Source: an uncultured Nitrososphaerales archaeon
GTDB lineage: Archaea; Thermoproteota; Nitrososphaeria; Nitrososphaerales; Nitrososphaeraceae
Length of the DNA stretch: 64,000 nucleotides
NCBI GenBank assembly: GCA_963695855.1
Contig: CAVOHZ010000010.1
Coordinates: forward strand, 1,664,001 to 1,728,000
Direction: 5' to 3'
Positions 3,364 through 39,156 of this stretch are shown here, piece by piece. The first letter of the stretch is position 1. Each line of letters starts with the position of its first letter. A model generated the notes under the pieces. That model made no database searches, had not been told where the DNA came from, and saw only the letters and a program-made list of their open reading frames with translations. Made by a program: the position numbers and the translations under genes.

Positions 3364-3410
3364 AATGGAGAGGATGGGATTTGAACCCGTTACTGCTAGT
3401 CATGGGATTG
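3364..3410 (-). repeat. Degenerate att site (tRNA 3'-end copy plus arm)
   Basis: AATGGAGAGGATGGGATTTGAACCC matches 39130-39154 with 2 mismatches; downstream bases resemble those after 13987 and 25269. Confidence 0.75.
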
Positions 3411-3832
3411 CTCTGATGAAACAAGATATTATATTAACTCTTACGAACTAACTAGCTGAAGTCATAAAGAGAATATTCTCAGCTATAGCTTTTGCTGCTT
3501 ATCTGAAGAGTCAAAATTATATTGTTACTTCTCCTGTTCACAAATAATCATAGTAATAATTCAATTAATTGACAATTGTTGGATTAAAAAAGCAATTTAG
3601 TAAGTAAAAAATCTAAATTAATTTTCTTATTTTTTTATGAAATGTCATATCATAGGTAAAATGTAATATCACTTATTTTGTCAATAAAGCTAAATAATAA
3701 CTGTTTTCATCATCTCATAGTTAAATGTAGTTTATAAAACTATTATCCTATGTAGGTATTAATAGATTTTTCTTCCAAGTGATGTTTATTTCCAAAAAAT
3801 TATTATATTAATTTTGTATAGATCTGTCCTCT

Positions 3833-4387
3833 TTGAAATCGAATTATAAGAATACTATCGGTATCTTGGGGTTAATTATATCTTTTTTTGGCACCATCTT
3901 CTTTGGCTTAGGAACAATATATAGATCTGAAGAATCATTTTCATCATCTTTTCTAATATGTATTATAGGAATAATATTAGTAGGGTGGTGGCTTAAGCAC
4001 GTAAAAAGAATTGGAATAAAGATTGCAATGACTATTTTGTTAATGGGTCAGTTATTAATATTTTTATTTCCTGAAAGTATTTTCAGTTTAGATAGAAATT
4101 ATGTTAACAATATGACATTTTTTGTTTTTATAGTCTTCCTCATTGGCATTATTGTGTCTATTAAATGTATTAGAAAAAGATATAAAATACGTCAAAACTT
4201 TTCAAAATCTATAAAGAATCAGATACTTCAAAAACAGAAACACAAATGTGCAGTATGCAGAGAAATGCCTCCATTATTTCACTTTGATCATAAGGATGGA
4301 AATAGATCTAATAATGGTTTAAAGAATTGTCAGGCTTTATGTCCAAATTGTCATTCAATAAAAACATTAAGACATATAAGAAGATAG
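3833..4387 (+). CDS. Membrane protein (about 4 TM) with C-terminal HNH domain
   Basis: Hydrophobic N-terminal two-thirds, then CAVC..HFDHKDGNRSNN..NCQALCPNCH. Confidence 0.85.
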   Translation: MKSNYKNTIGILGLIISFFGTIFFGLGTIYRSEESFSSSFLICIIGIILVGWWLKHVKRIGIKIAMTILLMGQLLIFLFPESIFSLDRNYVNNMTFFVFIVFLIGIIVSIKCIRKRYKIRQNFSKSIKNQILQKQKHKCAVCREMPPLFHFDHKDGNRSNNGLKNCQALCPNCHSIKTLRHIRR

Positions 4388-4479: not shown

Positions 4480-4860
4480 AATGAACCCTTATTTTGATTG
4501 TTACATTTATAGATGAACGGTAACCTAATCCAATTCTATACATACTTTGGATTAGATTTTTATTTTTTGTAAAGAAAAAATCACGAAGACATTCTGTTCT
4601 GTGAAATACTGTATTACTCTTTCTTTCCTTTCAATTAAACTTTTTTTCTAAAGGTCCGTGCAACTGATCTTTTAGATCTAGAAAATACATTTCTATGTAT
4701 ATCATGTGCCACCATCTGTGTATACGACATATCTTTCATACTTGTCAATTAGTAAATACATAAAATTATCTGCCACAAACATGTTTGTTCCCTTGGAAAT
4801 ATGTATTCCAAGCACAGATTTGTGGTGCTTCAATTACAAACCCAAAATCAGTAATGATAA
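4480..4860 (-). pseudogene. Highly eroded IS6 transposase remnant
   Basis: ATATGTATTCCAAGCAC..TTCAAT.ACAAA resembles 2322-2366; reverse strand gives a RTEC..DFF-like segment. Confidence 0.4.
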
Positions 4861-5467
4861 TCCCATTAGAATATGATACAGCTAAATCCATTTTCTTAAA
4901 TTAATAACCTCGTTAAAGTATTTCATACAAAATTAAAGTGTTAAATATCATAATGTCGTATAATCTACTAACCACTGAATAATTTGTCTATAGCGAATCT
5001 CTGTAGCTATATCCTTCCACAATCTAATGCCAACATAATGCCTCGTTACAACCTATGGACAACTTCGATACTCACATTCGGTGGTGTTGGAGAGAAAGAT
5101 CTAGAATAACTATATTGATATCCAACCATTGCGGCATGGTAGATATCTTTAATTACTTTCACAAACTCTCCAACGACATTCTTAAGTTTCAAGTTTGAAT
5201 TTAAGGGCAATATGATAAATCAACAAGTCTAAAAAAGTTAAAAGTAAATACAGAATAAAAGACAAGTATGAATTATCATCTAATTTAAGGTTGCTTGAAG
5301 AAAATCAATTATTACTATTCAAACAAAAAATAGAGCAAGATAAAGCATGTAAAAGTACACACGATTCTTATAGAAAATGTCATCTTAATTAGAATTATTT
5401 TCTCAAGATAAACATATTGTATGTATATACATGGATTCAGGGGGGATTTTTGTTTATTTGTTTTTAT

Positions 5468-5605
5468 TTATTTGATCTTGATTTCCATTGTCGGTTCTTC
5501 CTCCAAGTCTTTTTCTTTTCTTGTCGCAAAGAACTTGAATACTAATACTGCTGCTGCTAGTGCTAAACCACTTACAGTTGATAGAAGAAATATTTCACAA
5601 CTCAC
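5468..5605 (-). CDS. Small single-TM protein (45 aa)
   Basis: GTG-start ORF MSCEIFLLSTVSGLALAAAVLVFKFFATRKEKDLEEEPTMEIKIK; below the ORF-track cutoff. Confidence 0.5.
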   Translation of the reverse strand: MSCEIFLLSTVSGLALAAAVLVFKFFATRKEKDLEEEPTMEIKIK

Positions 5606-5665
5606 TTATCTTACATATTATATTAAACAACAAATTATTTTAATATTTTCTCAAAATTGAACTAA

Positions 5666-10251: not shown

Positions 10252-10887
10252 TTATTCTACTTTAATTTCTTTTCCTTTAGGCTTTGTCTGTTTCTTTTTG
10301 TTAAATACTATTTCCAGAATTCCGTTATTGTATATAGATCTGACAGTTTCAATATCTGCTTCTGTTGGTAAATCTATTAATTTACGATATTTTCTTTGTG
10401 GATCATCACTTGATATTTCTACAGAATTCTCATAAGCATTTATCTTTATATTTTCTTTTTTTATACCTGGCATTTCTACTACGATTTTGACTTCTTTATC
10501 TGTAGATGATACATCAACTAAAGGTTCTCTTTCTGAAGAAATTGATGGCTGTTGGAAGAATCCTCCATTTCCAGCAAAATGAGATTTTACGTTACCAAAT
10601 TCTCTTATATTTGGCTTTCCATCAGATCCTATGGTCATTGAATATCCATATACTATTGGACCTACTTGTCTAACTTTTCCACCTTCTGGTGTTTCGTATT
10701 CTTTAACCAAATCTTTTGGTACTCTGTTTTCAATATTTTTAAATTGTTCAGAAAATGTTCTTTCAATGTCTTTTCTCATTTCATCAAATTCTGTAAATAT
10801 ATCGTCAAAGTTCCAGCTGCCAAAAGTCTTTCGTCCACTAAAAAATTTCTTATACCACTCATATGGAATTATATCTCTATTACTCAT
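10252..10887 (-). CDS. hsp20: Archaeal small heat-shock protein Hsp20
   Basis: GPIVYGYSMTIGSDGKPNIREFGN, EREPLVDV, EMPGIKKE, YNNGILEI and C-terminal IKVE; probable start MSNRD at 10887. Confidence 0.93.
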   Translation of the reverse strand: MSNRDIIPYEWYKKFFSGRKTFGSWNFDDIFTEFDEMRKDIERTFSEQFKNIENRVPKDLVKEYETPEGGKVRQVGPIVYGYSMTIGSDGKPNIREFGNVKSHFAGNGGFFQQPSISSEREPLVDVSSTDKEVKIVVEMPGIKKENIKINAYENSVEISSDDPQRKYRKLIDLPTEADIETVRSIYNNGILEIVFNKKKQTKPKGKEIKVE

Positions 10888-10905
10888 TGTAATATTCATC
10901 TGTAA

Positions 10906-10932
10906 ATTGTAATATACATTACAATATATAAA
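10906..10932 (-). promoter_or_regulatory. hsp20 TATA box with adjacent palindromic operator
   Basis: TTTATATA (minus strand, 10925-10932) abutting perfect inverted repeat ATTGTAAT-N4-ATTACAAT (10906-10925). Confidence 0.6.
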
Positions 10933-10944
10933 CCTTATGACATA

Positions 10945-11214
10945 ATTTAGTTGTAATAGACTAACATATACAATTATCCTAACTCTTCTTTCACCTGTTT
11001 TTCCCCTTAGAATTAAGATAGCTCCTTTGGTATCAATCAATATATCCTTATTAGAAAGAGTTAGAAATTCTTCTGGTCGAGCACCACTTTCATACATACA
11101 ACCGAGAAATACTTTCTTTTGTAAATTTGGTGCGTTTTCTACTAATTCTGTTAATTCTTCTTCTAAATATTTTTCAATATTTTCTAATCGGATCTCATTA
11201 TTATCATATCTCAT
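10945..11214 (-). pseudogene. Tyrosine recombinase fragment (box I region)
   Basis: MYESGARPEEFLTL...GKTGERRVRI; C-terminal catalytic half missing. Confidence 0.85.
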
Positions 11215-11329
11215 AAACTGTAAAAGCTATTTGTCAGCATGTTTATTTCGTGTAATGTCAAACTATTGTGAAGTATTCCAGAAGGGAACCTATCGAATGG
11301 CTTAATATCACGTCTGGATATGAATCAGC

Positions 11330-11688
11330 ATGACTCAAGATATACATACTACACTTGACGTTACAGTCAAAGAGGGAAAAATCGAAGAATTTAATAGATT
11401 AGTCGAAGAGATTTGCAAAGCAGTCGAGGATAACGAACCAGGTGCTAAGAGATACCAGTTTTTCCTGATGATAAAACACAGTACGTTCTGAACGAATCAT
11501 ATGTAAATATAGAAGCTGTACTTGCTCATCTTAAAGGTGCCGCAGTTCAAATAATACTTCCAAAGATATTCAATATTTGCAGGATAAACCGGTTTGAAGT
11601 ATTTGGAGATGTCACCGATGAATTGATGAAAACATTAGCACAAATGGGTGGCGTGAATTACCATTTTCTAAATGGTTTTTCTCGGTGA
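11330..11688 (+). pseudogene. ABM / putative quinol monooxygenase family, frameshifted
   Basis: VKEGKIEEF..NEPGAKRYQF, frameshift near 11462, then ESY..EAVLAHL..FEVFGD. Confidence 0.75.
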
Positions 11689-11815
11689 AAGTATGCAAAT
11701 TTTGAAATTATTTGCTGTAGGCATCCCATCTGGGTATTCGGTTAAACAAATCACTCGGCTAGATTATTTGTCTGTTCTTTTTTATAATCTTCAATTCCAT
11801 ATGCTTCAAGAATTG

Positions 11816-12890
11816 ATTTTCAAGATTCATTGCCAAAGTAATGAAGATAGACTTGAGGCATTCTACTGGACATTGACGATCCAGCATGATCTCTCAAAGT
11901 ATGCTCTTTCAAAATGAAAGACTTTGAAGTTAGAGCAGAACGTCTCTGAATATAAGGAGCCCAAGGTTTTGTTAACAAATTTCTAATGTATGATTTATCT
12001 GCTTCTGGAATGTTAGAATCTTCAAGTAACTTTGGGAAATAGCGTTTTTTATAGCTACGTGTATACTGTTTGTATAATGCATTTAAGTTGTTGTCCAAAA
12101 TTACTATCTGCTAAAGATATAAAAGACATCAGGATTGTTTGCAAGAGGATGAGAATCAATCCAACCTTTGACATAGGGAATTGAAAAAATAAGAGGTTTA
12201 GTCTTGTTTTCTACTATGTCAACTTCTGCATATTCTGTACCATTAGATGATACTTTGAACATGATATCCTTTAATCTTAGGGAAAGTAATTCATGTGACT
12301 TACATGAAGTATCATTTGCCATCGCATGATAACAACGATATCTTTTTTCTGGACAATATTTCAAAAATAGTGCATGATCTTTACTGGTCCATATATCAGA
12401 GGCTTTGTAGGTTGATGTTTGCTTTCTTGAAAGTTGTTTGATCTTGCATACATAGAGGAGTAATGCATTTCTTTTGTTCTAGTTTGCCATTATTTTTAAC
12501 TTTATTATATTGATAGTAGTAATTGTATAACCATCTGTCTGGTGTTGTATGTTCCTATTCATTAATCAGTAGGATTATCTGATTCTGTTTTCTTTAACGA
12601 AGCTAAATAGGAAATTATATCTTTTGTTATTTTTGAAAGTCTTTGTAACGTAGACGTTTATTGAATAAACAAATGACTTTGATATGTGTTGATATTGTAC
12701 TGGATTTAACATTCTAGATATTATATTGTGGTTCAAGAAATTTGTAAGGATCATTAATGTTTTGTAGATTTATAGAAGACATTTTTTTAAAAAGAGAATT
12801 GTAATAATAGTATGAAATCGCTTTTTAGTTAATAACTGGATCTTTTTTCTAAATCTACGATTATGATGCTGTTATTATTATTACTATTAC
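11816..12890 (-). pseudogene. Degraded paralogue of the tRNA-Val integrase
   Basis: YCPEKRYRCYHAMANDTSCKSHELL, IPEADKSYIRNLLTKPW and MPQVYLHYFGNES closely match 37552..39063; catalytic R lost, multiple frameshifts. Confidence 0.9.
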
Positions 12891-13819: not shown

Positions 13820-13951
13820 ATTATTTTTTTATTATTTTTAGGAAACAAAGAAAGATTAAGAAATTATTCTTGCAAAGAAATTGGAAGTTGATCTTTAAAA
13901 CTATTTCTTTAATAAACAGTTTTCTAACTTCATTGGCAGTATAGTCAATCT

Positions 13952-13987
13952 CGTGAATTGAATGGAGGGGATGGGATTCGAACCCAT
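13952..13987. repeat. att direct repeat, distal junction (36 bp)
   Basis: CGTGAATTGAATGGAGGGGATGGGATTCGAACCCAT identical to 39121..39156. Confidence 0.95.
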
Positions 13988-17256: not shown

Positions 17257-17421
17257 ATGAAAAATATAACAACGAACCAAAAATATACAACAATTCGGAT
17301 AACCACAGAAACCCATGATCTATTGGCTGATCAGGGAAATATGAAAGATTCCTATGATACTGTCATCAAGCGACTGATTGAAAATCAAAGGGCCAAGGAG
17401 AACCCATATGTTCCGAAATGA
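17257..17421 (+). CDS. RHH/antitoxin-like DNA-binding protein
   Basis: YTTIRITTETHDLL..GNMKDSYDTVIKRLI. Confidence 0.75.
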   Translation: MKNITTNQKYTTIRITTETHDLLADQGNMKDSYDTVIKRLIENQRAKENPYVPK

Positions 17422-17525: not shown

Positions 17526-20363
17526 ATGACAGATTTGTATCAAAATGTGAACCCTCGAGCATTTAATATGATGCTCAGTACAAATAGTAAATCACACATA
17601 CGAGTGATAGACAGTAATACTCCTGCTACCAGTAAGGTCAGAACTGAAGAAATCTTTTCATCTGAGGACCAGACAACCGATTATCTTTCTATCCAAGGAC
17701 TTAATACTAGATTCGGACTCGACGGAACTGGTTTTGAAATTTTCATAATAAAGGAAATGATGGATAACGCGCTAGACTATATTGAACAAAATGCACAAAA
17801 ATTTGCACAATTAAATGAAGGAATACCATTTATCGATGTAGTTGTTGCCGAAGAAAATGATGAAGTTGTAAAAATCATTGTTACAAATTCTAACGCAAGT
17901 AATGAAAATATATTTTCTGAGGACCAAATTCAGAAAATCTTTAATCTTAAAGAATACTACAGCAGCAAAAGATACAGGCATCAAATAAATCGTGGAGAGT
18001 TGGGTGATGCCTTCAAGGCCATATTATGCATTCCTTACGCCATTGCCGTCAATGATCACAGTAACATCTATGAAAACTGGGATTATCCGTTAAAGATCAA
18101 TATTTCCAATAAAAGACTAATTGAAGTTAAAATCGATAATTTCGATAAAATTAGAAAAAAGGAAAATGTACGGGTAAAGGCAGAGTTTAAACAAATTTCT
18201 GATGAAACTAAAAATCAATCCTATTTTACAGAAATCACCGTATATATTCCAAAAATCTCAGTAAATTATGATAAAATTAGGCAAATTCTAAAAAGATATG
18301 CAGTTATAAATACACATATTATTTTTGATTTCAAAATTCCAAGCAAAGAAACAGGTATATACGAATACAGTTGGTTCTTAACACAGAAACTAAAACGTGA
18401 TTGGAAAAATAGACTAAGTATATATTCTTATTCTTTACCAGATTTTAGAGATTTAATTCTCAGTATTAAAGATAGAGATGATCTAAATGTGTATGATGAT
18501 TTAATCAGACCACATTTTAGAGAAGGTGGATCACTTCCAAAAGAGGACCAATTTAAGACATTGGCCTATAAGGATTTAAAATCTGATATGAACAAAATCG
18601 AGGTTGTATACAATAAGTTAAAGAATAATCAAAGATCAATAAAACATCAATCCTCACGTCGTATTCCATTCCTGGACGTTCCTTTTGACATGGAGAAAAC
18701 ATCCAGAGAAAACGGGTTAAGAGTACGTCTACAACAGGTATATGATATTGACAAAGATAGTTTTGTGTATAAGAAATTTGATAGATGTTATTATGAAAAC
18801 CTAGAGAAAGGTGTAGAATTTCCGTATATGTTTGAAATTGCTATTGCAAAATCACCAATGTTTCCAAAGAAAAGATTGACATTAATTGAATCTTTAAATT
18901 GTTCTCCTGGCTTGTATTCTGATTCATTATTTCATGCGAATGAACCAATTTTTAACTGGACGCAAAAAAATGGACAAGTATGGAATGGATATAGTATTGC
19001 TGGGGTTCTCGAAAATTGCGGATATTCAGTTGAAAACGAAAAGAAACATAAGAAAATCCATAATCTAATTCTTATTAATTTAATATCTCCTAGAATAGAT
19101 TATAGTAGTCATAGTAAATCAAGTATCAAATTAGAGCCATTCGCTGAAATGACTCAGAAGGTTTACACTTTTTGTAAGGAATCACATAGAAAAAAAACCA
19201 GTGATGATAACACATTAAATAATATGCACTATTTAAGAATCATATTACAAGATCGATATTATGCTGTAAAGAACAATCCAATACTGAAAACACCAAAATA
19301 CAGATGGACTCAAAGCACCGTATACTATATTTTGAGAAAGATTCTTGATGAAAAAGGGATTCCAATTGCAGATAGAGATTACATTACTGGAGAAATCAAA
19401 GTTGAATGTGAACAATTAGGAATGCGATTAATAGAAATAGGCAGACCGCTTAAAAGACACGAATTGGGGATAATTGCAGCAGAAAGGGCACAACTGTTTT
19501 TTGATGGCCAGGCTCTAGGAATTAGTTTTGACCGAATAGAAGAGTTGATGAAAAAAGGAACGGATCTCCTAATTATAGAGAAAGAAGGTATAGCCGAAAT
19601 ATTCATGGAATTTGCAAATAAACGAGGGATTGCAATCTTAAACTCTCGTGGGTTTGTTACAGAATATGCAGAAGAATTATCAGAACTTGCTCAAAAAGAA
19701 GGATGCAATATCGCTATATTAACAGATTTAGATTCATCTGGATTGCTTATTTCATCCAAACTACCTAATGCTTATAGAATAGGTATTGACTTTAGGACAC
19801 TTCTTTATTTTGAGGATATAGAACAGGAGACTGTTGAGGAGCAAGTTACTAAAAAGAACAAGAACGAAAATGAGAACGAAAGTGATAGTCATTTATCAAA
19901 ATTAAAAGATCTGGCTAAATCAGAAATACCATTGCCTTACAGAAATAATCCTGAGGAATGGGAGGAGTTAATAGAATATCTGGATACTGGAATGCGTATA
20001 GAAATAGATAGTATTCGTACCCAACTTAATAACGATAATGAAAGATTTTGGGATTACATACTTAAAGAATTAGATAGAGAGTTCCCAACGAGGAATTATA
20101 ATAGAGCCATAGAGGTAAAGGAATATGTTATGCCAAAAATGATAGACGATTTTATTTCTGCTGTAGGAAATATATTGACCGAAGCGACTTCAGAAAAACG
20201 GGAGGAAATAATGAACGACTTGGCAAATACAGAACATTTCTTTGATGATATAAAAGTTGAAAGCGAAGAAATTGATGAACAACTAGGATCAGTTTCCGAA
20301 TCTGATGAAATTAAAAAGCAAATTGCTGAACAAGTTAAAAAGTTTTTGAAGTTTGAAGCATAA
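17526..20363 (+). CDS. Type IIB topoisomerase-like B-A fusion (Topo VIII-like)
   Basis: GHKL motifs IKEMMDNALD, YYSSK, RGELGDAFK, TEITV; candidate catalytic Tyr in WTQSTVYY; TOPRIM LIIEKEG, RGF, LTDLDSSG. Confidence 0.8.
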   Translation: MTDLYQNVNPRAFNMMLSTNSKSHIRVIDSNTPATSKVRTEEIFSSEDQTTDYLSIQGLNTRFGLDGTGFEIFIIKEMMDNALDYIEQNAQKFAQLNEGIPFIDVVVAEENDEVVKIIVTNSNASNENIFSEDQIQKIFNLKEYYSSKRYRHQINRGELGDAFKAILCIPYAIAVNDHSNIYENWDYPLKINISNKRLIEVKIDNFDKIRKKENVRVKAEFKQISDETKNQSYFTEITVYIPKISVNYDKIRQILKRYAVINTHIIFDFKIPSKETGIYEYSWFLTQKLKRDWKNRLSIYSYSLPDFRDLILSIKDRDDLNVYDDLIRPHFREGGSLPKEDQFKTLAYKDLKSDMNKIEVVYNKLKNNQRSIKHQSSRRIPFLDVPFDMEKTSRENGLRVRLQQVYDIDKDSFVYKKFDRCYYENLEKGVEFPYMFEIAIAKSPMFPKKRLTLIESLNCSPGLYSDSLFHANEPIFNWTQKNGQVWNGYSIAGVLENCGYSVENEKKHKKIHNLILINLISPRIDYSSHSKSSIKLEPFAEMTQKVYTFCKESHRKKTSDDNTLNNMHYLRIILQDRYYAVKNNPILKTPKYRWTQSTVYYILRKILDEKGIPIADRDYITGEIKVECEQLGMRLIEIGRPLKRHELGIIAAERAQLFFDGQALGISFDRIEELMKKGTDLLIIEKEGIAEIFMEFANKRGIAILNSRGFVTEYAEELSELAQKEGCNIAILTDLDSSGLLISSKLPNAYRIGIDFRTLLYFEDIEQETVEEQVTKKNKNENENESDSHLSKLKDLAKSEIPLPYRNNPEEWEELIEYLDTGMRIEIDSIRTQLNNDNERFWDYILKELDREFPTRNYNRAIEVKEYVMPKMIDDFISAVGNILTEATSEKREEIMNDLANTEHFFDDIKVESEEIDEQLGSVSESDEIKKQIAEQVKKFLKFEA

Positions 20364-21159: not shown

Positions 21160-21273
21160 ATGTCCAATAAGTGCAAGTGCTGGGTTTGCTCGTTTTTAAC
21201 TGAATGTGCGGACCAAAAAGTATATCAACAATCTACACACATGCAGAAAGTTCTAGGTAAGAAGAGGTCATGA
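21160..21273 (+). CDS. Tiny Cys-rich protein (37 aa)
   Basis: MSNKCKCWVCS..EC; ATGA overlap with the helicase start. Confidence 0.45.
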   Translation: MSNKCKCWVCSFLTECADQKVYQQSTHMQKVLGKKRS

Positions 21274-22751
21274 CTTCAACACCAGGAGGTTTTGATTCCG
21301 AATATACCAAAAACGCACATTACGATGTTTTTGGTACACGTATGGCTGATTTTAGTGATGCAAGAAAGAAAAAGCAGGAACTGATAGAGGACGGTACAAG
21401 ATTTGTCATGGCCCGACATATTTTTTTGACAGTTGAGGAAACAAAAGAAATTCTATACTATGACAAGGATAAAGGAGTTTATGTATCTGGGGGAGAACTA
21501 ATAATTGAAAAAGACCTAGAAGATATATTTGAATTTAAATTAAGAGTTGTAGACATATCAGAAATAAAAGGCCACATAATGAGGAAAACGTACGTAAAAA
21601 TGGAGGAATTTGATGCTGATCTTGATATTTTAAACATGAAAAACGGCCTATACAACTGGAGGACAAACAAATTGAAGCCACATACACCCGAATACTATTC
21701 TATGATACAGTGTGGTGTCAAATACGATTCCAGGGCAAAACCAAAATACTTTATGACATTCCTAAAGGAAGTTTTGTATGCTGAGAACATAAGAACAGCC
21801 TTGGAGATAATTGCATATACCTTCATACGTTTACATTTGTTTGAGTGCTACTTTATTTTAGTAGGCACCGGCTCTAACGGTAAGAGTGTGTTTGTAGGTG
21901 TGTTATGTGCTCTACACGGGAAGGATAATACCGCTAATGTCTCTTTGAAGGAACTGGTAGAAGACAGGTTTGCTCTTGCGGACCTAGTTGGAAAGAATGT
22001 AAATGTAGATACTGAACTATCAAGCAGCAGTATAAAGGATATGTCTATTCTCAAGAAACTTACAGGAAATCAACCGATAAGGGTACAGAAGAAAGGACAA
22101 CATGCCTTTGAGTCTGTGCTATGGGCCAAGCAGATATTTAACGCCAACCAGTTACCGGTAACAGATGATCATACAGACGCTCACTTTAGAAGAGAGATAA
22201 CGCTATCGTTCCCATATCAGTTCAAGGAAAAAAAAGATGATGATGATACTATAATAGGTACAGTAGAGGAGGATGAACCCAATGTCAAGACGGCAGATAT
22301 TCACATGTTAAAGAAACTTACAACCAAGAAAGAACTGTCAGGGATTTTCAACCTTGTAGCCAAGTCCATGAGGGCAATAGATCGCAATAAGAAGATATAT
22401 GCAGATTCTAAATCTATTGATGATAGAAGAGAAAAAGCGGAATTAACGAGGGACCCTATAGGTGCATTTGTCGATATCTGTAAGGTACAGCCAATAGCAC
22501 CAACATCAAACAGTTTTATGTTAAAAGAGGATCTCTACAAAATATTCAAGAATTTCTGTGAAGTGAAGAAGTTACATGTACCAAGTTATGGGGAATTTGC
22601 TGAAATAATGAGGAAAGAACACGGTTACAAAAATAAACGAAAGATGATACTTGGAAAGAAGGAAACTGTCTGGTATGTTGAGGTGAATAATCCAACTGGA
22701 GAAGAGGAAGTCGAAAGTGAAGATGTAGCAAATAACAACATAAACAACTAA
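21270..22751 (+). CDS. D5/P4-family SF3 helicase (no primase domain)
   Basis: LNMKNGLY..LKPHTPEYY (D5_N), Walker A GTGSNGKS, LKKLTG, NANQLP, AHFRR. Confidence 0.92.
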   Translation: MTSTPGGFDSEYTKNAHYDVFGTRMADFSDARKKKQELIEDGTRFVMARHIFLTVEETKEILYYDKDKGVYVSGGELIIEKDLEDIFEFKLRVVDISEIKGHIMRKTYVKMEEFDADLDILNMKNGLYNWRTNKLKPHTPEYYSMIQCGVKYDSRAKPKYFMTFLKEVLYAENIRTALEIIAYTFIRLHLFECYFILVGTGSNGKSVFVGVLCALHGKDNTANVSLKELVEDRFALADLVGKNVNVDTELSSSSIKDMSILKKLTGNQPIRVQKKGQHAFESVLWAKQIFNANQLPVTDDHTDAHFRREITLSFPYQFKEKKDDDDTIIGTVEEDEPNVKTADIHMLKKLTTKKELSGIFNLVAKSMRAIDRNKKIYADSKSIDDRREKAELTRDPIGAFVDICKVQPIAPTSNSFMLKEDLYKIFKNFCEVKKLHVPSYGEFAEIMRKEHGYKNKRKMILGKKETVWYVEVNNPTGEEEVESEDVANNNINN

Positions 22752-23107: not shown

Positions 23108-23818
23108 TTAGGGCGGTCCTATAATGAATTCAACTCCTGCGTCTTCAAGACATTCTATCAAATCATCAACAACTTCTGGATCTACACCAGGTAGAGCCAA
23201 CCTGAAAGCATCTTCAGGAATGACTGATCCATCTTCAGGATTAACAAATAGTATACAAAATCGTTCGATCGATTCAACTCCAAATAGTTCTACAAAAGTG
23301 GTAATTTCGTCTGGAGATAGAAATTCTTCAAAACATTCTTCACATGTTCTTTGTGGAGTACTAGTTCTTATCTGTTCATTCACATTAACATTTACACATA
23401 TGTTTACAAGGTTTTTCTCGAAGTTTATTTTATCAAAGCCATTTTCATTTTGTGCGTTTGCTGCCTCTGGACCCGCTCCCTCATTTGTTGCTGCAGTAGC
23501 AGTAGTGTCTTCAGGTATTTGGGTAATATCTATTCCATTGACATTTATGTTACTGTTTACACAGGATATTTTCTGGATATCTCCATAACTCTTTTTTTGA
23601 TGGTTATTGTCATAACCGTACTTGTTGTCGTCTTGGTAATAGTAGTTGCTATTATATCCATATTGATCACCATAGTAGGAATGTCGATCGTCATCATAAC
23701 CTTCACTGCCATATGGCATTGCTTGTGCGTTTGTAATTGTTGATGGGTTTAGAGCCAGTATACTTGTCGCTAGTATTGCCCCTAGTATAGAAGCAAATAC
23801 TATCATTCTATTGCTCAT
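23108..23818 (-). CDS. Secreted/surface protein with Tyr/Asp-rich linker
   Basis: Signal peptide, YGYD-rich tract, KISCVNSNINVNG and NLVNICVNVN, acidic Cys-containing C-terminal domain. Confidence 0.8.
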   Translation of the reverse strand: MSNRMIVFASILGAILATSILALNPSTITNAQAMPYGSEGYDDDRHSYYGDQYGYNSNYYYQDDNKYGYDNNHQKKSYGDIQKISCVNSNINVNGIDITQIPEDTTATAATNEGAGPEAANAQNENGFDKINFEKNLVNICVNVNVNEQIRTSTPQRTCEECFEEFLSPDEITTFVELFGVESIERFCILFVNPEDGSVIPEDAFRLALPGVDPEVVDDLIECLEDAGVEFIIGPP

Positions 23819-24025
23819 TACATTGTTAAATGTGAATTTATTATATCTAAGGTTGGAAGGAACATTATCTAATCCTGTAATATTTTATCATGCTGAATTA
23901 TTGAATATAAGAAGAATAGCAATTGATCTACAAGTACAATATTAGATGTTATAATAATCTCAAGAATTCTGTTTTGTTAGTTTGTTAGTTAATTAATTAC
24001 CAAGAATTGGTACAAAAATAAAAAA
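23811..24025 (-). repeat. Upstream module copy 1 (near-identical to 25515..25730, partial copy at 25036..25143)
   Basis: Shared CATTACATT..AGGTTGGAAGGAACATTATCTAAT..CATGCTGAATTATTGAATATAAGAAGAATAG. Confidence 0.9.
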
Positions 24026-24031
24026 AGTGGA

Positions 24032-25042
24032 TTAAGGTCCCAATGGACTGTTCTGGCAGACTACGAATGCTTTGAGGGAAATACCTGATCCAACTCCAAC
24101 TCCTGTTACATTCCAGCCTGTTCCATCTGTTGTCATACGAGATGTTTCTACGGTAGATGCCCCTGCTTTTGTAAACCCTCCACCGGTTACAACATCATCG
24201 TCTTCACAGTTAGCGATTGAACTTAAGGCAATGCCTGTTGTATCAGCAGTACCTTCATTTTGATAGGTAGTTGGTGTGAATGCTATATTACAAACCTCTG
24301 CAGTTGCGTCTACAACCCATACACCTTCCAAGTCACTAAGCGGTGGACATTGTTCTGCTGGGGTTGCTGCATCACAGAGTTGTGGGTCTGTTACTATTGC
24401 ACTACCCAAGTTAGAATCTGCTTTACATGTAAAGGTTGGAACATCTATACTACAATTTGCATCAGTTGCTTCTACTACCCATACACCTTCCAAGTCAGTA
24501 AGTGGTCCACACTGTTCTGCTGGGGTTGCTACATTACACAGATCTGGGTCTGTTACTTTTGCACCTGCACCCAAGTTAGAATCTGCTTCACATGTAAACA
24601 AGGTGACTTCTTGAGGTGGTTGTGAATCAGCAATACCTCTTGTCTGTTCGTTGCCATTAGCATTTACACAAACGTTTACAAGGTTTCTGTCAAAGTTTAT
24701 TTTATCGAGTCCGTTACCAATCTCTGTATTTGCGGCTTCTGGACCTCCTTCATTTGCTGCTTCTAAGGCAGTATTGTCGCGAGGTATCTCGGTAACATCT
24801 ACACCATTTACGTTGAGGTTACTATTTCTACAATTTATTTTCTGGATATCTGTGTAAGAACTCTTTTGATCTTTTTTATCATAACTATACCTATTGTCGT
24901 CTTGGTAATAGTTATTGTCGTATCCATACTGATTGTCGTACATTTCCGCTTGTGCATTCCATATCATTGATGGGCTTAAAGCCAATAGACCTGCGGCTAC
25001 TATCACTGTGATAGAAGCCAGAACTATCTTGTTATTGGTCAT
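24032..25042 (-). CDS. Paralogous secreted/surface protein with two ~54-aa Cys-rich repeats
   Basis: N-terminal half homologous to 23108..23818; FTC.ADSNLG..VTDP.LC..ATPAEQC..DLEGVWVV occurs twice; C-terminal CEDDDVVTGGGF. Confidence 0.8.
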   Translation of the reverse strand: MTNNKIVLASITVIVAAGLLALSPSMIWNAQAEMYDNQYGYDNNYYQDDNRYSYDKKDQKSSYTDIQKINCRNSNLNVNGVDVTEIPRDNTALEAANEGGPEAANTEIGNGLDKINFDRNLVNVCVNANGNEQTRGIADSQPPQEVTLFTCEADSNLGAGAKVTDPDLCNVATPAEQCGPLTDLEGVWVVEATDANCSIDVPTFTCKADSNLGSAIVTDPQLCDAATPAEQCPPLSDLEGVWVVDATAEVCNIAFTPTTYQNEGTADTTGIALSSIANCEDDDVVTGGGFTKAGASTVETSRMTTDGTGWNVTGVGVGSGISLKAFVVCQNSPLGP

Positions 25043-25143
25043 TACATTCTTAAATACGAATTTAATATATCTGAGGTTGGAAGGAACATTATCTAATGGT
25101 GTAATATTTTATCATGCTGAATTATTGAATATAAGAAGAATAG
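25036..25143 (-). repeat. Upstream module copy 2 (partial)
   Basis: ~108 bp matching 23812-23919. Confidence 0.85.
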
Positions 25144-25245
25144 AAAATGATATTTAGGTGGAAAGAAAGTGAAATCCTAGCATTACAGCAACCAATACAG
25201 GTCCACGAAAGACCCAAGATAAGAAATAATATCAGCATGACAAGC

Positions 25246-25292
25246 ATAGAGGGGATGGGATTTGAACCCGTTACGTGCATTCAATGGTTTGT
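25246..25292 (-). repeat. Internal degenerate att site
   Basis: GAGGGGATGGGATTTGAACCC followed by GTTACGTGCATTCAATGGTTT, similar to 13961-14008. Confidence 0.8.
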
Positions 25293-25345
25293 GCAGTTCA
25301 TACTTAAGAAACAGATAGAAACTAAAATTGAAGAATTATAGACAT

Positions 25346-25522
25346 TTAATCTTCAAAGAAAGGTCTATGTTGAACATCGAAACCTGGAGAGATATTTGCA
25401 AATTGCATTATTGTGATCATTTTGCATATTTTGTCCTGTAACTCTGAATGTTCAATGAATTTCTTTTTACAAATAGGACATTTAGTTTCTTTTCCTACAT
25501 TCATAATGTTACTATTGCTCAT
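25346..25522 (-). CDS. Small zinc-finger protein (58 aa)
   Basis: MSNSNIMNVGKETKCPICKKKFIEHS..KIC; ATG at the same module position as the two secreted paralogues. Confidence 0.6.
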   Translation of the reverse strand: MSNSNIMNVGKETKCPICKKKFIEHSELQDKICKMITIMQFANISPGFDVQHRPFFED

Positions 25523-25730
25523 TACATTCTTAAATACGATTTTATTATATCTAAGGTTGGAAGGAACATTATCTAATCCTGTAATATTTTATCATGCTGA
25601 ATTATTGAATATAAGAAGAATAGCAATTGATCTACAAGTACAATATGAGATGTTATAATAATCTCAAGAATTATATTTTGTTAGTTTGTTAGTTAATTAA
25701 TTACCAAGAATTGGTACAAAACAAAAAATA
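25515..25730 (-). repeat. Upstream module copy 3
   Basis: ~215 bp near-identical to 23811..24025. Confidence 0.9.
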
Positions 25731-30659: not shown

Positions 30660-33600
30660 TTGAAAAATATCCGTGATTTTGAACGGGCAAGAGAATATGT
30701 AAGAACCTTAGGGATTAAAAGTGTAAACGGCTGGAAAAAATATTGGAAAAAGGAGCAAAAACCCGAAGATATACCTTACAATCCGGATAGGGAATATAAA
30801 AATAAAGGTTGGATGGGTTGGGGAGATTTTCTTGGAACAAAAAATGTTTCTTCCAAACAGGACTATTATTTACCTTTTGAAGATGCAAGAGAGTTTGTAA
30901 GAAAACGAGGACTGAAAACTTATGGCGAATGGCGTAAATATTGCACATCTAAAGAAAAGCCTGCAGATATTCCTTCAAAGCCTGAGGTTTACTACAAGAA
31001 TAAAGGTTGGATTGATTTTGGAGACTGGCTTGGAACAACTTATTTACCATTTGAACAGGCAAGAGAGTTTGTAAGAAAACTAGGACTGAGAAATCAAATT
31101 CAATGGCGTAAGTATTGTAAATCCCAAGAAAAACCAATTACAATACCATCTAATCCTGATAAGACATACAAAAATAAAGGTTGGACTGATTTTGGAGACT
31201 GGCTTGGAACATATGCTATAGCACCTCAAAAAAGAAAATTTTTACCTTTTGAAGATGCAAGAGATATTGTAAGAAAATTAGGACTGAATAATGTTGATGA
31301 ATATGAAAAATATCATAAAAAAAATAAACCAAAACAAATACCATATTCGCCTCAAAGATATTATAAAAATAAAGGATGGATTGATTTTGGAGACTGGCTT
31401 GGAACATATACTATAGCACCTCAAAAAAGGAAATATCGCCCATTCAATGAAGCACGATAGTTTGCTCGGTCGCTTAATCTAATTAGTTCAGCAAATTGGG
31501 ATGAATATGTGACAAAAAATGATTTACCTTCAGATATACCCAAAGCACCATACATAGTTTACAAAGAAGAATGGCAAGGATGGGGTGATTTCCTTGGAAC
31601 TGGAATAGTGGCTACGCAGGATGCAGGATGGTCTATAGAAAAAGTAAAAGAGTTGTTAAGAGATTTGATAAAAAATAAGGTAATTTACCAATGGAATGAA
31701 GATGCACGTCTTTACAAAGTCTTAATGACTAAAGGAGTATTAAATTTAAAAAGTGAGAATAGACATTCTAATTTTTTTAAAAACTTGAGACAAACTGTAA
31801 AAACAGAAGAAGGAAGAAAAATTATTGAGGAATATGCATTTTCACAAAGCAATGATATACCAGACTTATCCAATACATATTCAGAAAATAACGATGAAGA
31901 AATTCCAATAGCATCAAATGAAGAACTGATTAATTTAGTCAACGATAAAGAAGAGCCGTTAGACTATAAAGAGCCACCAACAGTTGAGCAGATTCTATCC
32001 ACTATCTGTATGCTTGAATCCATTAATGTAGACGAAGAAGCCATGCAGTTTTTTCTAAGGGGATCTGTAAATGATTTCTGGAAGAGAGCATTCAAAGAGG
32101 AGGAGAAAACTGTTTTATCTGTTCAACAAGAAGGAAAAAATGGACAGAAGTTTCATGATAGTGTTCTAGAAACTTTTCTGTCAGAGTATGAAAATACTAA
32201 GGAATTAAAGATTCCTAATGATTTCTCACCTGATCTCAAACCTACTCTTATGCAAAAATTTGTAGCATATAAAATTAGCATTTCCCCTTATTTTGGAAAC
32301 TTTTCCGGAACAGGTGCAGGAAAAACCCTTTCCGCGGTATTATCAAGTCGCATTATAGGTAGTAAAATGACTGTAATAGTTTGCCCAAATGATATAGTTA
32401 GACAATGGGAAGAAGAAGTTAGAAAAATGTTTTCGAATTCAAAAATATTAACTGAAAAAAAGGCATTTAATACAATACGTAATCAGAAGAAATATCAATA
32501 TATTATACTAAACTATGATAAATTTAACCAAAATGATTCAAGTGACAATATTCTTAAACTTATGCAACAAAAAATTGATCTAGTTATTTTGGATGAAATT
32601 CATTATACCAAAGTAACAACAGAGGAAAAGGCAAGTCTTAGAAATAAAAATCTTATTGGATTATTGACAGGTATCAGAAAGAAAAATCCTATAGCAAAGG
32701 TTTTAGGTATGTCAGCAACTCCTGTAGTTAACAATTTAACAGAAGGAAAATCCCTTTTAGAAATGATAACAGGAAAGATATATACCGACCTCAAAACTAA
32801 GGCTACTGTTCCAAATGCGGTTACTCTTTATGAAAAACTATCTACAATTGCTATTAGAGAATTACCTTCGTATAATATCAATACAGAAGAGGAATTTATA
32901 GAAGTTGATGCAGAACTGGACATTTCCACTAATAATCGAATTCTTTTAAAAAATCCCTTATCCACAGAACAGGTTTTAACAAAGGCTAGGATAAAAGAAA
33001 TAATAAATCATATTGATAAAGGGGGTTTTACAATTATTTATACAGAATATGTAGGAAAAGATATTATTAAAAATCTTTCAAACGCCATTAAGGATTTAGG
33101 ATTAAACTATGCAGTTCATACTGGTTCTGATCATACAGGGAAAAAACAATTTCAAGAAAAGAAGGCACAGGTATTGATTGCATCTAGTCCATTATCAATC
33201 GGTATAGATGGACTTCAAAAAGTTTGTAACAGACTAATAATAAATTCACTTCCTTGGACAAATGCAAGATACCAGCAACTTATTGGTCGCTTAGTTAGAC
33301 CAGGTCAGATACATAATAAAGTAAAAGTTGTAATAATATTGGCTTCATTAAAAATTAAGGAAAATAAATATGAATATGATCGTAGGAAATGGAATAGAAT
33401 ACAATATAAAAAAACTCTTGCAGATTGTGCAGTAGATGGTATATTACCAGAAAAAAATCTTGTGACTAGGGAACAGGCTCACAGGGAAGCCATACGATGG
33501 TTAGAAAGATTAGAGCGAGGTGAAATTTCTACAGTATCACGAAGAGACTTAGAAATAGAACTAACTCCAGCCGAAAAAAGACTCTTAATAAGAAAATATG

Positions 33601-37551: not shown

Positions 37552-39063
37552 TTATTCATTATAATCTGATTTAGGAACATACATTCCATTATCGATAAAG
37601 TCATACGCTAGCCATTTCTTTTTGGTTTTTTTCTCCCGTTCTGTAACTGTTACCAATTTATCCATAGTATCCATAACCATTTTAACCTGCGATTTTAACG
37701 ATTCCACTTCTTCCTGCATTCCCTTTATCTGATTCTCTTTTTCTTTTTGGTTTTCTAACGTATATTGATATGAATGATAAGACAAAACCATTTTACATTT
37801 TACACAGAATTTTGAATCGTGTTTGTTTGATTCATTACAGTTAGGACAATACCTGGGTTTTAGTAATTCAATTCCTTCTGCTATTCCTTCATTTTCTTTT
37901 ATAATACCCTTGGCCTGCAGGATTGATCTTACTGACTCGTTACCAAAATAATGGATATACCTCTGTGGCATGTTGCTGTTAATACTCCAACCTGCATGAT
38001 TTCTAAGCATGTGTTCACTTAATTTCATTCTGGATTTTTCGGTTAATGCTGAGTGTCTGAATATATAGAGATTCCAAGGTTTTGTTAACATATTTCTGAT
38101 ATGGGATTTATCTGATTCTGGTATAGTCGTAGTGGTAGTTTTATCATCATTATTATGATTACTATCAAGTAGTTTACGAAAGAAACGATTGTATTTGTTT
38201 TTATATCTTTTTAATAATCCATTTACCAATAATTGATTTACAGAATTGGTATTTTTGTCACTTAAAGACACGAAAAACCATGAATCATGATTATCCCCAC
38301 ATGGATGATTTAACAACCATTCTTTTACATAAGGAATACTATCAATAAGTGGAAGGGTTCTTGGTCCAGTCTTACCGTTTACTGTAATTTCTGCATACTG
38401 TATTTCCTCTGATGAGATCTTAAATTTCAGGTCTTTTATCTTTAGATTAAGAAGTTCGTGAGGTCTGGCAGAAGTATCATTGGCCATTGCATGATAACAC
38501 CTATCTCTGATAGAAGGACAATATTTCAAAAATATAGCATGCTCTTCATTGGTCCACATATCCTCCGGCTTGTACGGTGATACTTCTTTCCTGGGAAGTT
38601 GTTTGATTCCCTGCATACAGTCAGGTGCATCCCTATTTTTGTGGTTCGTTTCATCTGGACTGTATAACCATTTGAAGAATTTCAGGAATAACATTTGTCT
38701 TGCATTCCATGTTCCTACACTCTTGTGAGTTGGGTCCACAGAAGAGGATTTTCTAAGGTTGTTTAGGTACTCCAGTATGTCGTCTTTAGTCATATCGTAA
38801 AAGGTTTTTTTATGTTCAAAGAATTTGGATAAATGTATCAGTATTTTTATTTTGGTTTCTTTTGTTGACTCTTTTATATTTAATTCGTTTTGTTCTGCAG
38901 TAATATAATCACATATTATTTTAACATTAAGAGGATTGGTCTGAACAAGTTCATTTAATCTTTTTGAGATGTAAGGTTTCAGGTATGTTGTAAGAGATTT
39001 TATTTTTCTTGTCAATTTTTCTTGTTCTTGTATTTCAATCGTTGTTGTTGTTGTTGCTCCCAT
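37552..39063 (-). CDS. int: Tyrosine integrase with C-terminal zinc ribbon and coiled coil
   Basis: DTSARPHEL (R), GKT (K), YIFRHS (R), HAGWS, QRYIH (Y); CPNC..CVKC; starts 57 bp from att. Confidence 0.93.
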   Translation of the reverse strand: MGATTTTTIEIQEQEKLTRKIKSLTTYLKPYISKRLNELVQTNPLNVKIICDYITAEQNELNIKESTKETKIKILIHLSKFFEHKKTFYDMTKDDILEYLNNLRKSSSVDPTHKSVGTWNARQMLFLKFFKWLYSPDETNHKNRDAPDCMQGIKQLPRKEVSPYKPEDMWTNEEHAIFLKYCPSIRDRCYHAMANDTSARPHELLNLKIKDLKFKISSEEIQYAEITVNGKTGPRTLPLIDSIPYVKEWLLNHPCGDNHDSWFFVSLSDKNTNSVNQLLVNGLLKRYKNKYNRFFRKLLDSNHNNDDKTTTTTIPESDKSHIRNMLTKPWNLYIFRHSALTEKSRMKLSEHMLRNHAGWSINSNMPQRYIHYFGNESVRSILQAKGIIKENEGIAEGIELLKPRYCPNCNESNKHDSKFCVKCKMVLSYHSYQYTLENQKEKENQIKGMQEEVESLKSQVKMVMDTMDKLVTVTEREKKTKKKWLAYDFIDNGMYVPKSDYNE

Positions 39064-39120
39064 CTTCTTGTGACTATTGGAAAGTTTGACGTCTTAAAAT
39101 AAAAACCTTAGTTATAAACC

Positions 39121-39156
39121 CGTGAATTGAATGGAGGGGATGGGATTCGAACCCAT
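39121..39156. repeat. att direct repeat, tRNA-proximal junction
   Basis: Identical to 13952..13987. Confidence 0.95.

Follow-up and report, generated by a model that had tools for sequence, protein, structure and literature searches.

Type IIB DNA topoisomerases include the two-subunit, chromosomal Topo VI as well as two families carried on mobile elements: Topo VIII, whose single chain unites the B and A modules (Gadelle et al., 2014, PMC4117785; Takahashi et al., 2019, PMC7671362), and Mini-A, a protein of about 300 residues that consists of the A module only. The survey of Topo VIII in PMC7671362 comprises 82 sequences, of which four are archaeal and all of these euryarchaeal, and it gives several traits against which new members can be compared. 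An Arg four residues before the catalytic tyrosine (Tyr-4) is described as DNA-contacting, being conserved in Topo VI and Mini-A and present in most Topo VIII (rarely His in Topo VIII), an Arg three residues after it (Tyr+3), often followed by Pro, is given as a Topo VIII-specific trait, and a T2BI box is defined that reads RVELNAM in Topo VIII and xWELDAL in Mini-A. Here we describe P0001, a protein of 945 residues encoded in a 64,000-nt stretch of DNA from an uncultured Nitrososphaerales archaeon (GCA_963695855.1, contig CAVOHZ010000010.1, positions 1,664,001 to 1,728,000; this whole stretch is hereafter called the window). P0001 is probably a single-chain type IIB topoisomerase carried by an element of about 25 kb integrated at a tRNA-Val gene, an activity that we infer from fold and residue conservation. 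In our reading of the sequences, its family stands as a clade of its own in the type IIB A-module tree, at no point falls within the 12 Topo VIII sampled, and has a weakly supported placement relative to the other three clades.

The gene and the parts of its product, in positions of the window, are as follows.

17526..20363, plus strand: P0001, single-chain type IIB topoisomerase-like protein with homologues, ATG to stop (945 residues plus stop); full model with a predicted local distance difference test score (pLDDT) of 81.4.
17526..17669, plus strand: residues 1–48, variable N-terminus predicted to be disordered (pLDDT < 50), of varying length and poorly aligned in the 33-sequence family alignment A1.
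17664..19238, plus strand: residues 47–571, Topo VI-B-like module (Bergerat/GHKL ATPase, H2TH-like helices, transducer), with ends taken from the VIA-align structural alignment; also matched by Foldseek and, as a profile, to Top6B in the PDB (E 0.0028).
17754..17777, plus strand: N-box E77-M-M-D80-N81-A-L-D84, aligned to ELIENSLD of Top6B.
17880..17894, plus strand: V119-T-N121-S-N123, which takes the place of the G1 box in non-canonical form and lines up with VVDNGIGI of Top6B.
17991..18017, plus strand: G2 box R156-G157-E-L-G160-D-A162-F-K164 of the GxxGxA type, aligned to RGMYGLGVK of Top6B.
19116..19118, plus strand: K531, transducer switch lysine, in ISPRIDYxSxxKS, aligned to STKIPYKSAGKES of Top6B (KSAGK lysine region).
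19209..20084, plus strand: residues 562–853, Topo VI-A/Spo11-like module (5Y-CAP winged helix, then Toprim), from the C-terminal model with VIA-align and Foldseek.
19326..19328, plus strand: Y601, predicted catalytic tyrosine, column-aligned with RxxYY of Top6A, Topo VIII and Mini-A.
19578..19580, plus strand: E685 (in IEKEG), Toprim glutamate, Glu in 163/166 relatives and aligned with VEK or IEK of Top6A, Topo VIII and Mini-A.
19725..19733, plus strand: D734-L-D736, Toprim DxD, followed by G739 (D734 163/163, D736 162/163, G739 162/163).
19995..20012, plus strand: R824-I-E826-I-D828-S829, family-specific T2BI box, aligned with RVELNA (Topo VIII), xWELDA (Mini-A) and KxExxA (Top6A).
20085..20360, plus strand: residues 854–945, a conserved RNYNR segment and long acidic helices with only generic helical matches (Z 6–6.7); R856, Y858, N859, R860 and P870 are near-invariant in A1.

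The structure models show both halves of P0001 to have the predicted fold of Topo VI-B followed by Topo VI-A/Spo11. The full-length model was built from A1 and is of low confidence at residues 1–48, 555–563 and 780–784 (the pLDDT given above is its mean), and the C-terminal 385 residues, folded alone, reach a pLDDT of 92.4 and a predicted template modelling score of 0.80. Compared by VIA-align, the full model matches Topo VI-B (1mu5, 9o0g_D) at Z 27.0–27.1, with 422–436 residues aligned at a root-mean-square deviation of 5.2–5.6 and model residues 47–571 lying over chain residues 10–470, nearly the entire crystallised fragment, which comprises ATPase, H2TH and transducer. For the N-terminal half, Topo VI-B (Z 27) ranks above GyrB (Z 22) and MutL (Z 20); this match ends at residue 561–571, and the module ends at 47 and 571 were set by the structural alignment. 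The proposal of the preliminary description that the N-terminal half is of the GHKL type is therefore borne out by the model, with H2TH and transducer following the ATPase domain. Foldseek likewise ranks Topo VI-B 1mx0_B first for the full model (E 2.4e-17, 549 columns), and Topo VI-A 1d3y_B appears at rank 39 (E 9e-7, 335 columns). The C-terminal model, searched by VIA-align independently of Foldseek, finds Topo VI-A 1d3y_B at Z 15.6 (249 residues aligned, model residues 2–293), 2zbk_A at Z 15.3, 2q2e_A at Z 14.2 and the Spo11 core complex 8uru_A at Z 11.1, the next unrelated match standing at Z 7.1. The Top6A alignments span 249–254 residues including the 5Y-CAP domain, and both they and the Spo11 match take in model residues 1–90, the part that bears the tyrosine; with Foldseek, 1d3y_B matches the same model at E 3.7e-7. 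For a homodimer of the DNA-gate module (two copies of A2 residues 1–300) the prediction reached 0.01, the mark being 0.42, and was given no weight in either direction. The acidic helical tail noted earlier is also present, as the C-terminus is acidic and the model places helices at 871–900, 909–923 and 927–944.

Every motif that had been quoted for the 945-residue open reading frame (ORF) is found in its translation, namely EMMDNALD (77–84), VTNSN (119–123), RGELGDAFK (156–164), TQSTVYY (595–601), IEKEG (684–688) and TDLD (733–736), and all of them sit on invariant or near-invariant columns in A1 and in an alignment of 198 proteins. These 198 relatives (P0001–P0198, whole or partial, from both homologue searches) were aligned to the family model and are the basis of all residue counts given here, each position being counted only where it is covered. 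In GHKL ATPases the N-box holds the catalytic Glu and the Mg-binding Asn. In the family, N81 is conserved in 103/103, D80 in 100/103 and D84 in 102/104, and the catalytic Glu at E77 is Glu in 89, Gln in 7 and Asp in 2 of 103, with a gap in 5. The Asp of the G1 box contacts adenine; at the corresponding position 121 Asn stands in 88/101 and Asp in 5/101, and position 123 is Asn in 71 and Gly in 9, so that the atypical VTNSN remarked on earlier is real and typical of the subgroup. More distant members of the same clade keep a canonical DNGxG. Both G2 glycines, G157 and G160, are present in 106/106 relatives (A162 is Ala in 86 and Gly in 18 of 107), and the switch lysine K531 is Lys in 130/130.

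In the C-terminal half, the second tyrosine of STVYY, Y601, falls on the catalytic tyrosine column of Topo VI-A, Topo VIII as well as Mini-A, and it is Tyr in 161/161, which agrees with the assignment on which the earlier proposal depended. R604 at Tyr+3 is found in 140/161 and is followed by Pro in 66 and Lys in 48 of 161, and S597 at Tyr-4 is Ser in 110, Asp in 18, Gln in 14, Asn in 12 and Arg in 5 of 161. The T2BI box (n = 153) has Arg in 140 and Lys in 12 at its first position, E826 in 152, Asp in 127 and Asn in 23 at position 828, and Ser in 107 and Ala in 29 at position 829, giving a family consensus of R-[IV]-E-[IL]-D-[SA] that in P0001 reads RIEIDSI. The alignments show that the residues predicted to serve Mg-dependent, Tyr-mediated cleavage are conserved throughout, together with the Asn, Glu, G2 glycines and switch Lys of the putative ATP site. 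As judged from these columns, the family departs from the published type IIB pattern at three places, the G1 box, Tyr-4 and the T2BI box.

Sequence libraries give little direct indication of this relationship. A search of 5.8 billion proteins returned 53 relatives of P0001 at E ≤ 7e-84, and an exhaustive search returned 773 cluster representatives at E ≤ 1e-3, including 166 at E ≤ 1e-30; their source labels are “hypothetical protein” or “ribonuclease M5”, and a few carry PF09664. The sole Pfam match of P0001 itself is a sub-threshold one to DUF2399, the JetD C-terminal domain (residues 674–757, E 0.0064, 16.7 bits vs a cut-off of 23.4), and the Topo VI models PF09239 and PF04406, which do find the host's own pair, have no match on P0001 at E ≤ 1. 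NCBIfam yields no family for P0001, and PHROGs a weak match to phrog_6247, a “DNA topoisomerase” family (E 3.7e-4). A clade of this kind is thus missed by standard models, as neither Pfam nor NCBIfam recognises P0001. A single-sequence search of PDB sequences gave just a chance match to phosphoglycerate kinase (E 0.72), which made a search with the family profile necessary; its only match was Topo VI-B (E 0.0028), with the N-box, G1 position, G2 box and switch-lysine segment aligned. The nearest clusters in the ESM Atlas are fused HATPase_c and TOP6A-Spo11_Toprim proteins (score 0.97–0.98).

For comparison with Topo VIII, three Lachnospiraceae loci encoding proteins of 814–831 residues were obtained from a scan of one genome per species. 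They carry an N-box, DxGxG, GxxGxG, RxxWY..R, IEK, DLD and RRVELNAF or RRIELNAF, and we regard them as Topo VIII because this is the signature given in PMC7671362. Further Topo VIII were taken from three other genomes and from plasmids (Halalkalicoccus jeotgali plasmid 5, P. polymyxa pPPM1a and P. amygdali pMPPla107). In profile comparisons by hhalign, A1 matches the Lachnospiraceae Topo VIII with the RVELNAF box at a probability of 99.1 (E 6.8e-19, 609 columns) and the H. jeotgali plasmid Topo VIII at 99.4 (E 2.6e-21, 679 columns), and against the host's own Topo VI the family profile gives E 0.012 for Top6B and E 0.12 for Top6A. This clearly makes Topo VIII the nearest of the known families. 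P0001 alone reaches the Lachnospiraceae enzyme by BLASTP in two segments (3e-11 and 6e-6, 22–26% identity), and a tblastn search with it matched none of the plasmid Topo VIII genes.

A quick tree of the DNA-gate module contained 64 rows (33 full-length family members, 6 natural C-terminal-only forms, 12 Topo VIII, 3 Mini-A and 10 Top6A), the Mini-A rows being phrog_6247 matches with CWELDAL or AVELDAL. Support, here from the Shimodaira–Hasegawa-like approximate likelihood ratio test only, was 99 for the family including its C-terminal-only forms, 95 for Topo VIII, 100 for Topo VI and 100 for Mini-A. For a more careful tree of 44 rows and 302 columns, 23 near-redundant rows were removed (17 family, 3 Topo VIII, 3 Top6A) and the three plasmid Topo VIII added. 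This tree recovers the family at 100/99, Topo VI at 100/100, Mini-A at 100/100 and Topo VIII at 88/86 with H. jeotgali as its first branch, and the split between the pairs of clades is weak (89/64). Mini-A and the P0001 family join in the trees, which we flag as a possible long-branch artefact, and in an approximately unbiased test a joint clade of the family with Topo VIII stays compatible with the data (p 0.338, 12 Topo VIII sampled). The trees sampled 12 of the 82 published Topo VIII, one of them archaeal.

Addition of 18 more distant relatives gave a second careful tree of 52 rows, in which the bootstrap is not fully settled (correlation 0.987). The distant relatives and the thaumarchaeal sequences form one clade there (100/99, stem 1.72), with Topo VIII at 91/84 and the deep branch at 81/48. 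This clade divides in two: in one branch the listed members mostly have a G1 box of the canonical D-N-G form, in the other the form is N-S-N; the former includes P0081, named by NCBI as from a Candidatus Hodarchaeota archaeon, and two proteins labelled “DNA topoisomerase VI subunit B” by IMG. From this distribution the N-S-N box looks like a secondary change, the direction of which is our supposition since the tree is unrooted within the clade. Topo VI, Topo VIII as well as Mini-A thus all stand apart from the P0001 family in the DNA-gate trees, in line with the earlier view of P0001 as a divergent type IIB member; the term “Topo VIII-like” holds as far as the nearest family is concerned, but P0001 appears to belong to a separate clade and not to Topo VIII proper.

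P0001 shares with Topo VIII the fusion of B and A modules in one chain and in the same order, carriage on mobile elements (plasmid or integrated), the Arg at Tyr+3 that is often followed by Pro, and a G2 box of the GxxGxA type, as in one Topo VIII group. Like Topo VIII it has no counterpart of the Top6A residues before about 69, the structural alignment beginning at chain residue 69–71. Split variants also exist in both: those among relatives of P0001 are broken at the junction of B and A and after the GHKL domain, and published split Topo VIII genes, according to PMC7671362, break within the transducer region. The differences lie in the T2BI box (R-I-E-I-D-S in the P0001 family, RVELNAM in published Topo VIII, and RVELNA[MF], RIELNAF, RVEINAF or RVELNSM in the Topo VIII sequences fetched here), in Tyr-4 (Ser, Asp, Gln or Asn, whereas Topo VIII has Arg or His) and in the G1 box (NSN in the subgroup of P0001, DxGxG in Topo VIII and Topo VI). 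Topo VIII proteins carry PF21180, PF02518 and PF13589, none of which is found in P0001, and the host range differs as well, being Nitrososphaeraceae and an Asgard-labelled relative for the P0001 family among the matches listed. With Topo VI the family has in common the set of domains, the fold of both halves, the catalytic residues and a T2BI box of the general form R/K-x-E-x-x-A/S, but the sequence similarity is marginal (the E values of 0.012 and 0.12 above), Topo VI forms a separate clade (100/100) and, unlike the two-subunit chromosomal enzyme, P0001 is a single chain on an element. Mini-A resembles it in the 5Y-CAP and Toprim domains with the same catalytic residues and in its carriage on mobile elements, and stand-alone A-only forms are likewise present within the clade of P0001; Mini-A differs in its small size without a B module, its xWELDAL box, its Arg at Tyr-4 and its separate clade (100/100).

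Profile matches to P0001 occur in 48/201 genomes of the host's family, in 30/114 of its high-quality genomes and in 10/18 genera, with three unpublished genomes (G433, G559 and G566) among those counted. In an even sample of the host's phylum, 2/401 genomes have a match, the host included. The host family has 126 matches in total, of which 15 are full-length and intact, in 14 genomes. Named relatives come from Nitrososphaeraceae and Nitrososphaerales metagenome-assembled genomes, and one is labelled as coming from an Asgard archaeon among the matches listed. The gene is split into adjacent ORFs at profile position ~310 in one genome (G460:C83), at ~530–555, the junction of B and A, in three others (G472:C279, G438:C26, G447:C215) and into three pieces in a further one (G450:C2). 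Among the representatives listed, stand-alone C-terminal proteins of 340–430 residues and N-terminal-only proteins are common, the C-terminal forms lying inside the clade. No match to P0001 was found by tblastn in plasmid and phage collections at E ≤ 1, no relative with the A1 profile in IMG/VR viral contigs, and no match in phages by tblastn with the C-terminal part of Topo VIII, run in search of Mini-A. The only match in the phylum sample outside the host's family (L005, G228:C4) is a C-terminal-only homologue of 382 residues in which, by eye, the Toprim Glu position holds Arg (LCRKEG) and the tyrosine position apparently His; it may be an inactivated derivative. Elsewhere in the genome of P0001 itself stands another copy, broken and limited to the N-terminal ~150 residues (G000:C8:108839-109315, L002/L006), 43% identical and with three in-frame stops. 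Of sequencing data sets sharing words with the sequence, 12 were listed, all of DNA and each with a share of at most 0.17, and none was of RNA.

The P0001 gene lies inside an element of about 25 kb integrated at tRNA-Val in a genome of 3.55 Mb and ~30% G+C. The main features of this element are given below.

13947..13987, no strand: left attachment-site repeat, a 41-nt direct repeat 95% identical to 39116–39156.
17257–17421, plus strand: 54-residue ORF 105 nt upstream of the P0001 gene, with a sub-threshold VapB-antitoxin (ribbon-helix-helix-like) match (E 0.022).
21270..22751, plus strand: D5_N/DUF5906 primase-helicase-type protein 0.9 kb downstream of the P0001 gene (Pfam DUF5906 5.2e-20, D5_N 4.1e-12; PHROG 864 DNA primase 4.4e-70).
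30660–31460, plus strand: 266-residue ORF of four ~190-nt internal repeats ending in KNKGW..FGD(W/F)LGT-like sequence, with PHROG matches only to families of unknown function.
31509–34169, plus strand: 886-residue fusion of SNF2/ResIII helicase and Methyltransf_8 (Methyltransf_8 E 6.1e-32), with weak DrmD/BrxH-type PADLOC matches.
35540–36871, minus strand: TerL-like gene next to the integrase (PHROG 2, E 1.1e-20).
36858–37298, minus strand: small ORF in the TerS position, overlapping the TerL-like gene upstream.
37552..39063, minus strand: tyrosine integrase adjoining the tRNA (Pfam Phage_integrase 2e-8; PHROG 1 integrase 4.2e-20).
39116..39156, no strand: right attachment-site repeat, a 41-nt direct repeat overlapping the 3′ end of tRNA-Val.
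39131–39207, minus strand: tRNA-Val, overlapped at its 3′ end by the right repeat.

An HNH endonuclease gene also lies between the repeats, and Pfam and PHROGs scans of the element brought up neither capsid nor portal nor tail genes. The G+C content is 0.31–0.37 inside the element vs 0.26–0.30 over much of the rest of the window. The host has its own adjacent Top6B (655 residues) and Top6A (371 residues) genes elsewhere on the same contig, and P0001 is therefore a predicted extra type IIB enzyme. The host is recognisable as an archaeon from PolD DP2, a PcrB protein of the GGGP synthase type and SHMT, all encoded in the window.

If P0001 acts as we propose, the steps beyond fold and residue conservation would follow the established course of Topo VI and the reports on Topo VIII. 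P0001 would form a homodimer, as Topo VIII does, and the binding of ATP would shut the N-terminal gate on one duplex. At the DNA gate, Y601 of one protomer would work with the Toprim domain of the other, so that two Y601 with Toprim-bound Mg2+ cut the second duplex, after which the first would be passed through and the break resealed. The Asn-Ser-Asn replacement in the G1 box would probably alter nucleotide binding and not abolish it: altered handling of the nucleotide is plausible given the loss of the G1 Asp and glycines, and the fact that the ATP-site residues are strictly conserved speaks against the B module being a dead appendage. On the element, the enzyme could act together with the D5-type primase-helicase encoded nearby, relaxing or decatenating the circle as it replicates after excision. 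Such a role is suggested by the adjacency of the two genes and by the same pairing on H. jeotgali plasmid 5 (L083, NC_014302.1, 23.7 kb), where the Topo VIII gene (1513–4233) is directly followed by a “phage/plasmid primase, P4 family” gene (4713–5610). Tentatively, the family would be one that mobile elements spread among Nitrososphaeraceae, with at least one Asgard archaeon also bearing its label, and in its thaumarchaeal branch, where the ATP pocket would have been rebuilt from Asp-x-Gly-x-Gly to Asn-Ser-Asn, the enzyme might use another nucleotide than any characterised type II topoisomerase or depend on ATP in another way.

A fixed operon of P0001 with the primase-helicase was considered and dropped, since neighbourhoods differ from locus to locus. 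When the ORFs of the window were compared with 29 related loci by BLASTP, and 82 neighbouring ORFs of 16 of these loci by Pfam, a D5/DUF5906 helicase was found in 2/29, a Y-family polymerase in 3/16, Rad50/HerA/NurA in 2/16 and QueC/PTPS in 2/16, many ORFs being without a family; with no conserved neighbourhood, a fixed partnership is not supported. At one locus only, a pentapeptide-repeat protein (L028:12608-13180, plus strand, E 1e-32) is encoded 3.3 kb downstream of a family member, and proteins of this type are described as interacting with type II topoisomerases in PMC4117785.

Several observations weigh against P0001 being a strand-passage topoisomerase at work on one intact element. The GHKL and Top6A models of Pfam all lack a match on P0001 at E ≤ 1, its G1 box has neither the Asp nor the glycines of DxGxG, the catalytic Glu is replaced by Gln in 7/103 relatives, and the DNA-contacting Arg at Tyr-4 is mostly replaced (Ser in 110/161, Arg in just 5/161). 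In-frame stops interrupt 38 of the 126 host-family matches, and fragments are numerous; no partner gene is conserved across the 29 related loci by BLASTP or, for 16 of them, by Pfam; and a second tRNA-like fragment (25231–25297) sits inside the pair of attachment sites, so that the integrase and the TerL-like gene may be part of another element that stands in tandem. The published activities of Topo VIII are weak and differ among themselves, one enzyme relaxing DNA with ATP, one without ATP and one only linearising it, according to PMC4117785. For every member of the present clade, topoisomerase activity is something that we infer from sequence.

These points bear unequally on three other explanations. 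P0001 could be a DNA-breaking or ATP-independent enzyme whose DNA gate is intact and whose remodelled ATP site no longer drives the full cycle, linearising or nicking DNA or relaxing it without ATP, for use in replication or recombination of the element or in an attack on competing DNA. The non-canonical G1 box of the subgroup (Asn at the Asp position in 88/101) and the Gln at E77 in a few relatives would fit such an enzyme, as would the natural stand-alone C-terminal forms of 340–430 residues inside the clade, the cleavage-only and ATP-independent activities reported for Topo VIII in PMC4117785, and the GxxGxA type of G2 box, which PMC7671362 ties to the Ammonifex Topo VIII that linearised plasmids. 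We consider this rather unlikely, as the residues for ATP turnover are strictly conserved (N81 103/103, G157/G160 106/106, K531 130/130, E77 89/103), which is unexpected in a dead ATPase, and the entire B module of ~520 residues is kept with high model confidence. The stops and fragments in the host family, the broken N-terminal copy on contig C8 of the same genome and the remnants of older elements in the window could instead mean that P0001 is a functionless relic of a decayed element; we hold this to be improbable, because its frame is open over the full length with all conserved residues present, 15 matches that are full-length and intact stand in 14 genomes of the family, and the attachment-site repeats are still 95% identical.

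Even less probable, and in our judgement very remote, is a nuclease effector of the JetD/MksG (Wadjet) type belonging to an element-borne defence system, an alternative that the preliminary description had allowed for and that we do not favour. It draws on DUF2399 as the only, sub-threshold, Pfam match (E 0.0064), on the few relatives with PF09664 and on the Top6A-type Toprim domain that P0001 has in common with the MksG nuclease 8b7f (VIA-align of the C-terminal model, Z 14.3). This last match is confined to Toprim, with 159 residues aligned over model residues 91–291, and leaves out the tyrosine-bearing part of the model, whereas the Top6A matches cover 5Y-CAP and Toprim over 249–254 residues; JetD 7til reaches just E 0.053 with Foldseek. 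The tyrosine is invariant, no PADLOC model matches P0001 at E ≤ 0.01, and no SMC/JetABC-type match was found by Pfam and PADLOC among the element ORFs of ≥ 100 residues, with those of 60–99 residues partly scanned; among the ORFs covered, no SMC-type partner is adjacent. P0001 also carries a complete Top6B-like ATPase module, of which JetD and MksG proteins are not known to have a fused counterpart.

The clade of P0001 is apparently large, separate and undescribed, and is a candidate fourth branch of type IIB enzymes, with its 773 cluster representatives and its presence in 48/201 genomes of a family of soil ammonia oxidisers. To our knowledge, there is very little biochemistry on type IIB enzymes outside Topo VI and Spo11. 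Closely related members with canonical and non-canonical G1 boxes offer a natural experiment on the role of this box in a GHKL topoisomerase, and the occurrence of fused, split (at the junction of B and A) and A-only forms in one clade bears on a question discussed as open in PMC7671362, namely if a B subunit was already part of the ancestral type IIB enzyme. The clade also points to a gap in a published survey. A table in a 2021 review (PMC8185306), the only paper found on Topo VIII in this group, credits Nitrososphaeria with a single type IIB enzyme and marks none as additional, and a 2019 survey of thaumarchaeal integrated elements (PMC6563490) has “topoisomerase” once, for type IA, with no mention of Toprim, GHKL or DUF2399. 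Titles and abstracts on topoisomerase VIII from 2022 onwards include none on such a clade, the accession tables of PMC7671362 lying outside this search.

The TerL-like gene lies 15 kb from the P0001 gene on the opposite strand, so that the linkage to a terminase claimed in the preliminary description amounts to co-residence on one element. Together with the ORF in the TerS position beside the integrase, it resembles the NitKor-E1 element as presented in PMC6563490, and a satellite-like lifestyle of the element is conceivable. The 54-residue ORF upstream of P0001 may be a small regulator. The minus-strand ORFs at 23108–23818 and 24032–25042, with their upstream regions (23108–25248), are diverged duplicates whose repeats are 62–77% identical; a third copy of a 217-nt upstream piece lies at 25512–25728 (96%), and both duplicate ORFs are without a family match in Pfam and PHROGs.

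The surroundings of the element suggest that several integrations, older, decayed or in tandem, are arrayed there. To its left (10252–12364) lies a broken integrase: one ORF joins the N-terminal part of an integrase to an Hsp20 domain, and over 92 nt the sequence there is 74% identical to the intact integrase gene. Fragments resembling tRNA 3′ ends at 3350–3416 and 25231–25297 have only a GGATGGGATT(T/C)GAACCC core in common with tRNA-Val, and the one at 25.2 kb may split the 25-kb stretch into two elements. Just left of the fragment at 3350, an array of 39-nt and 99-nt direct repeats (families D4, D11 and D14) occupies positions 2940–3300.

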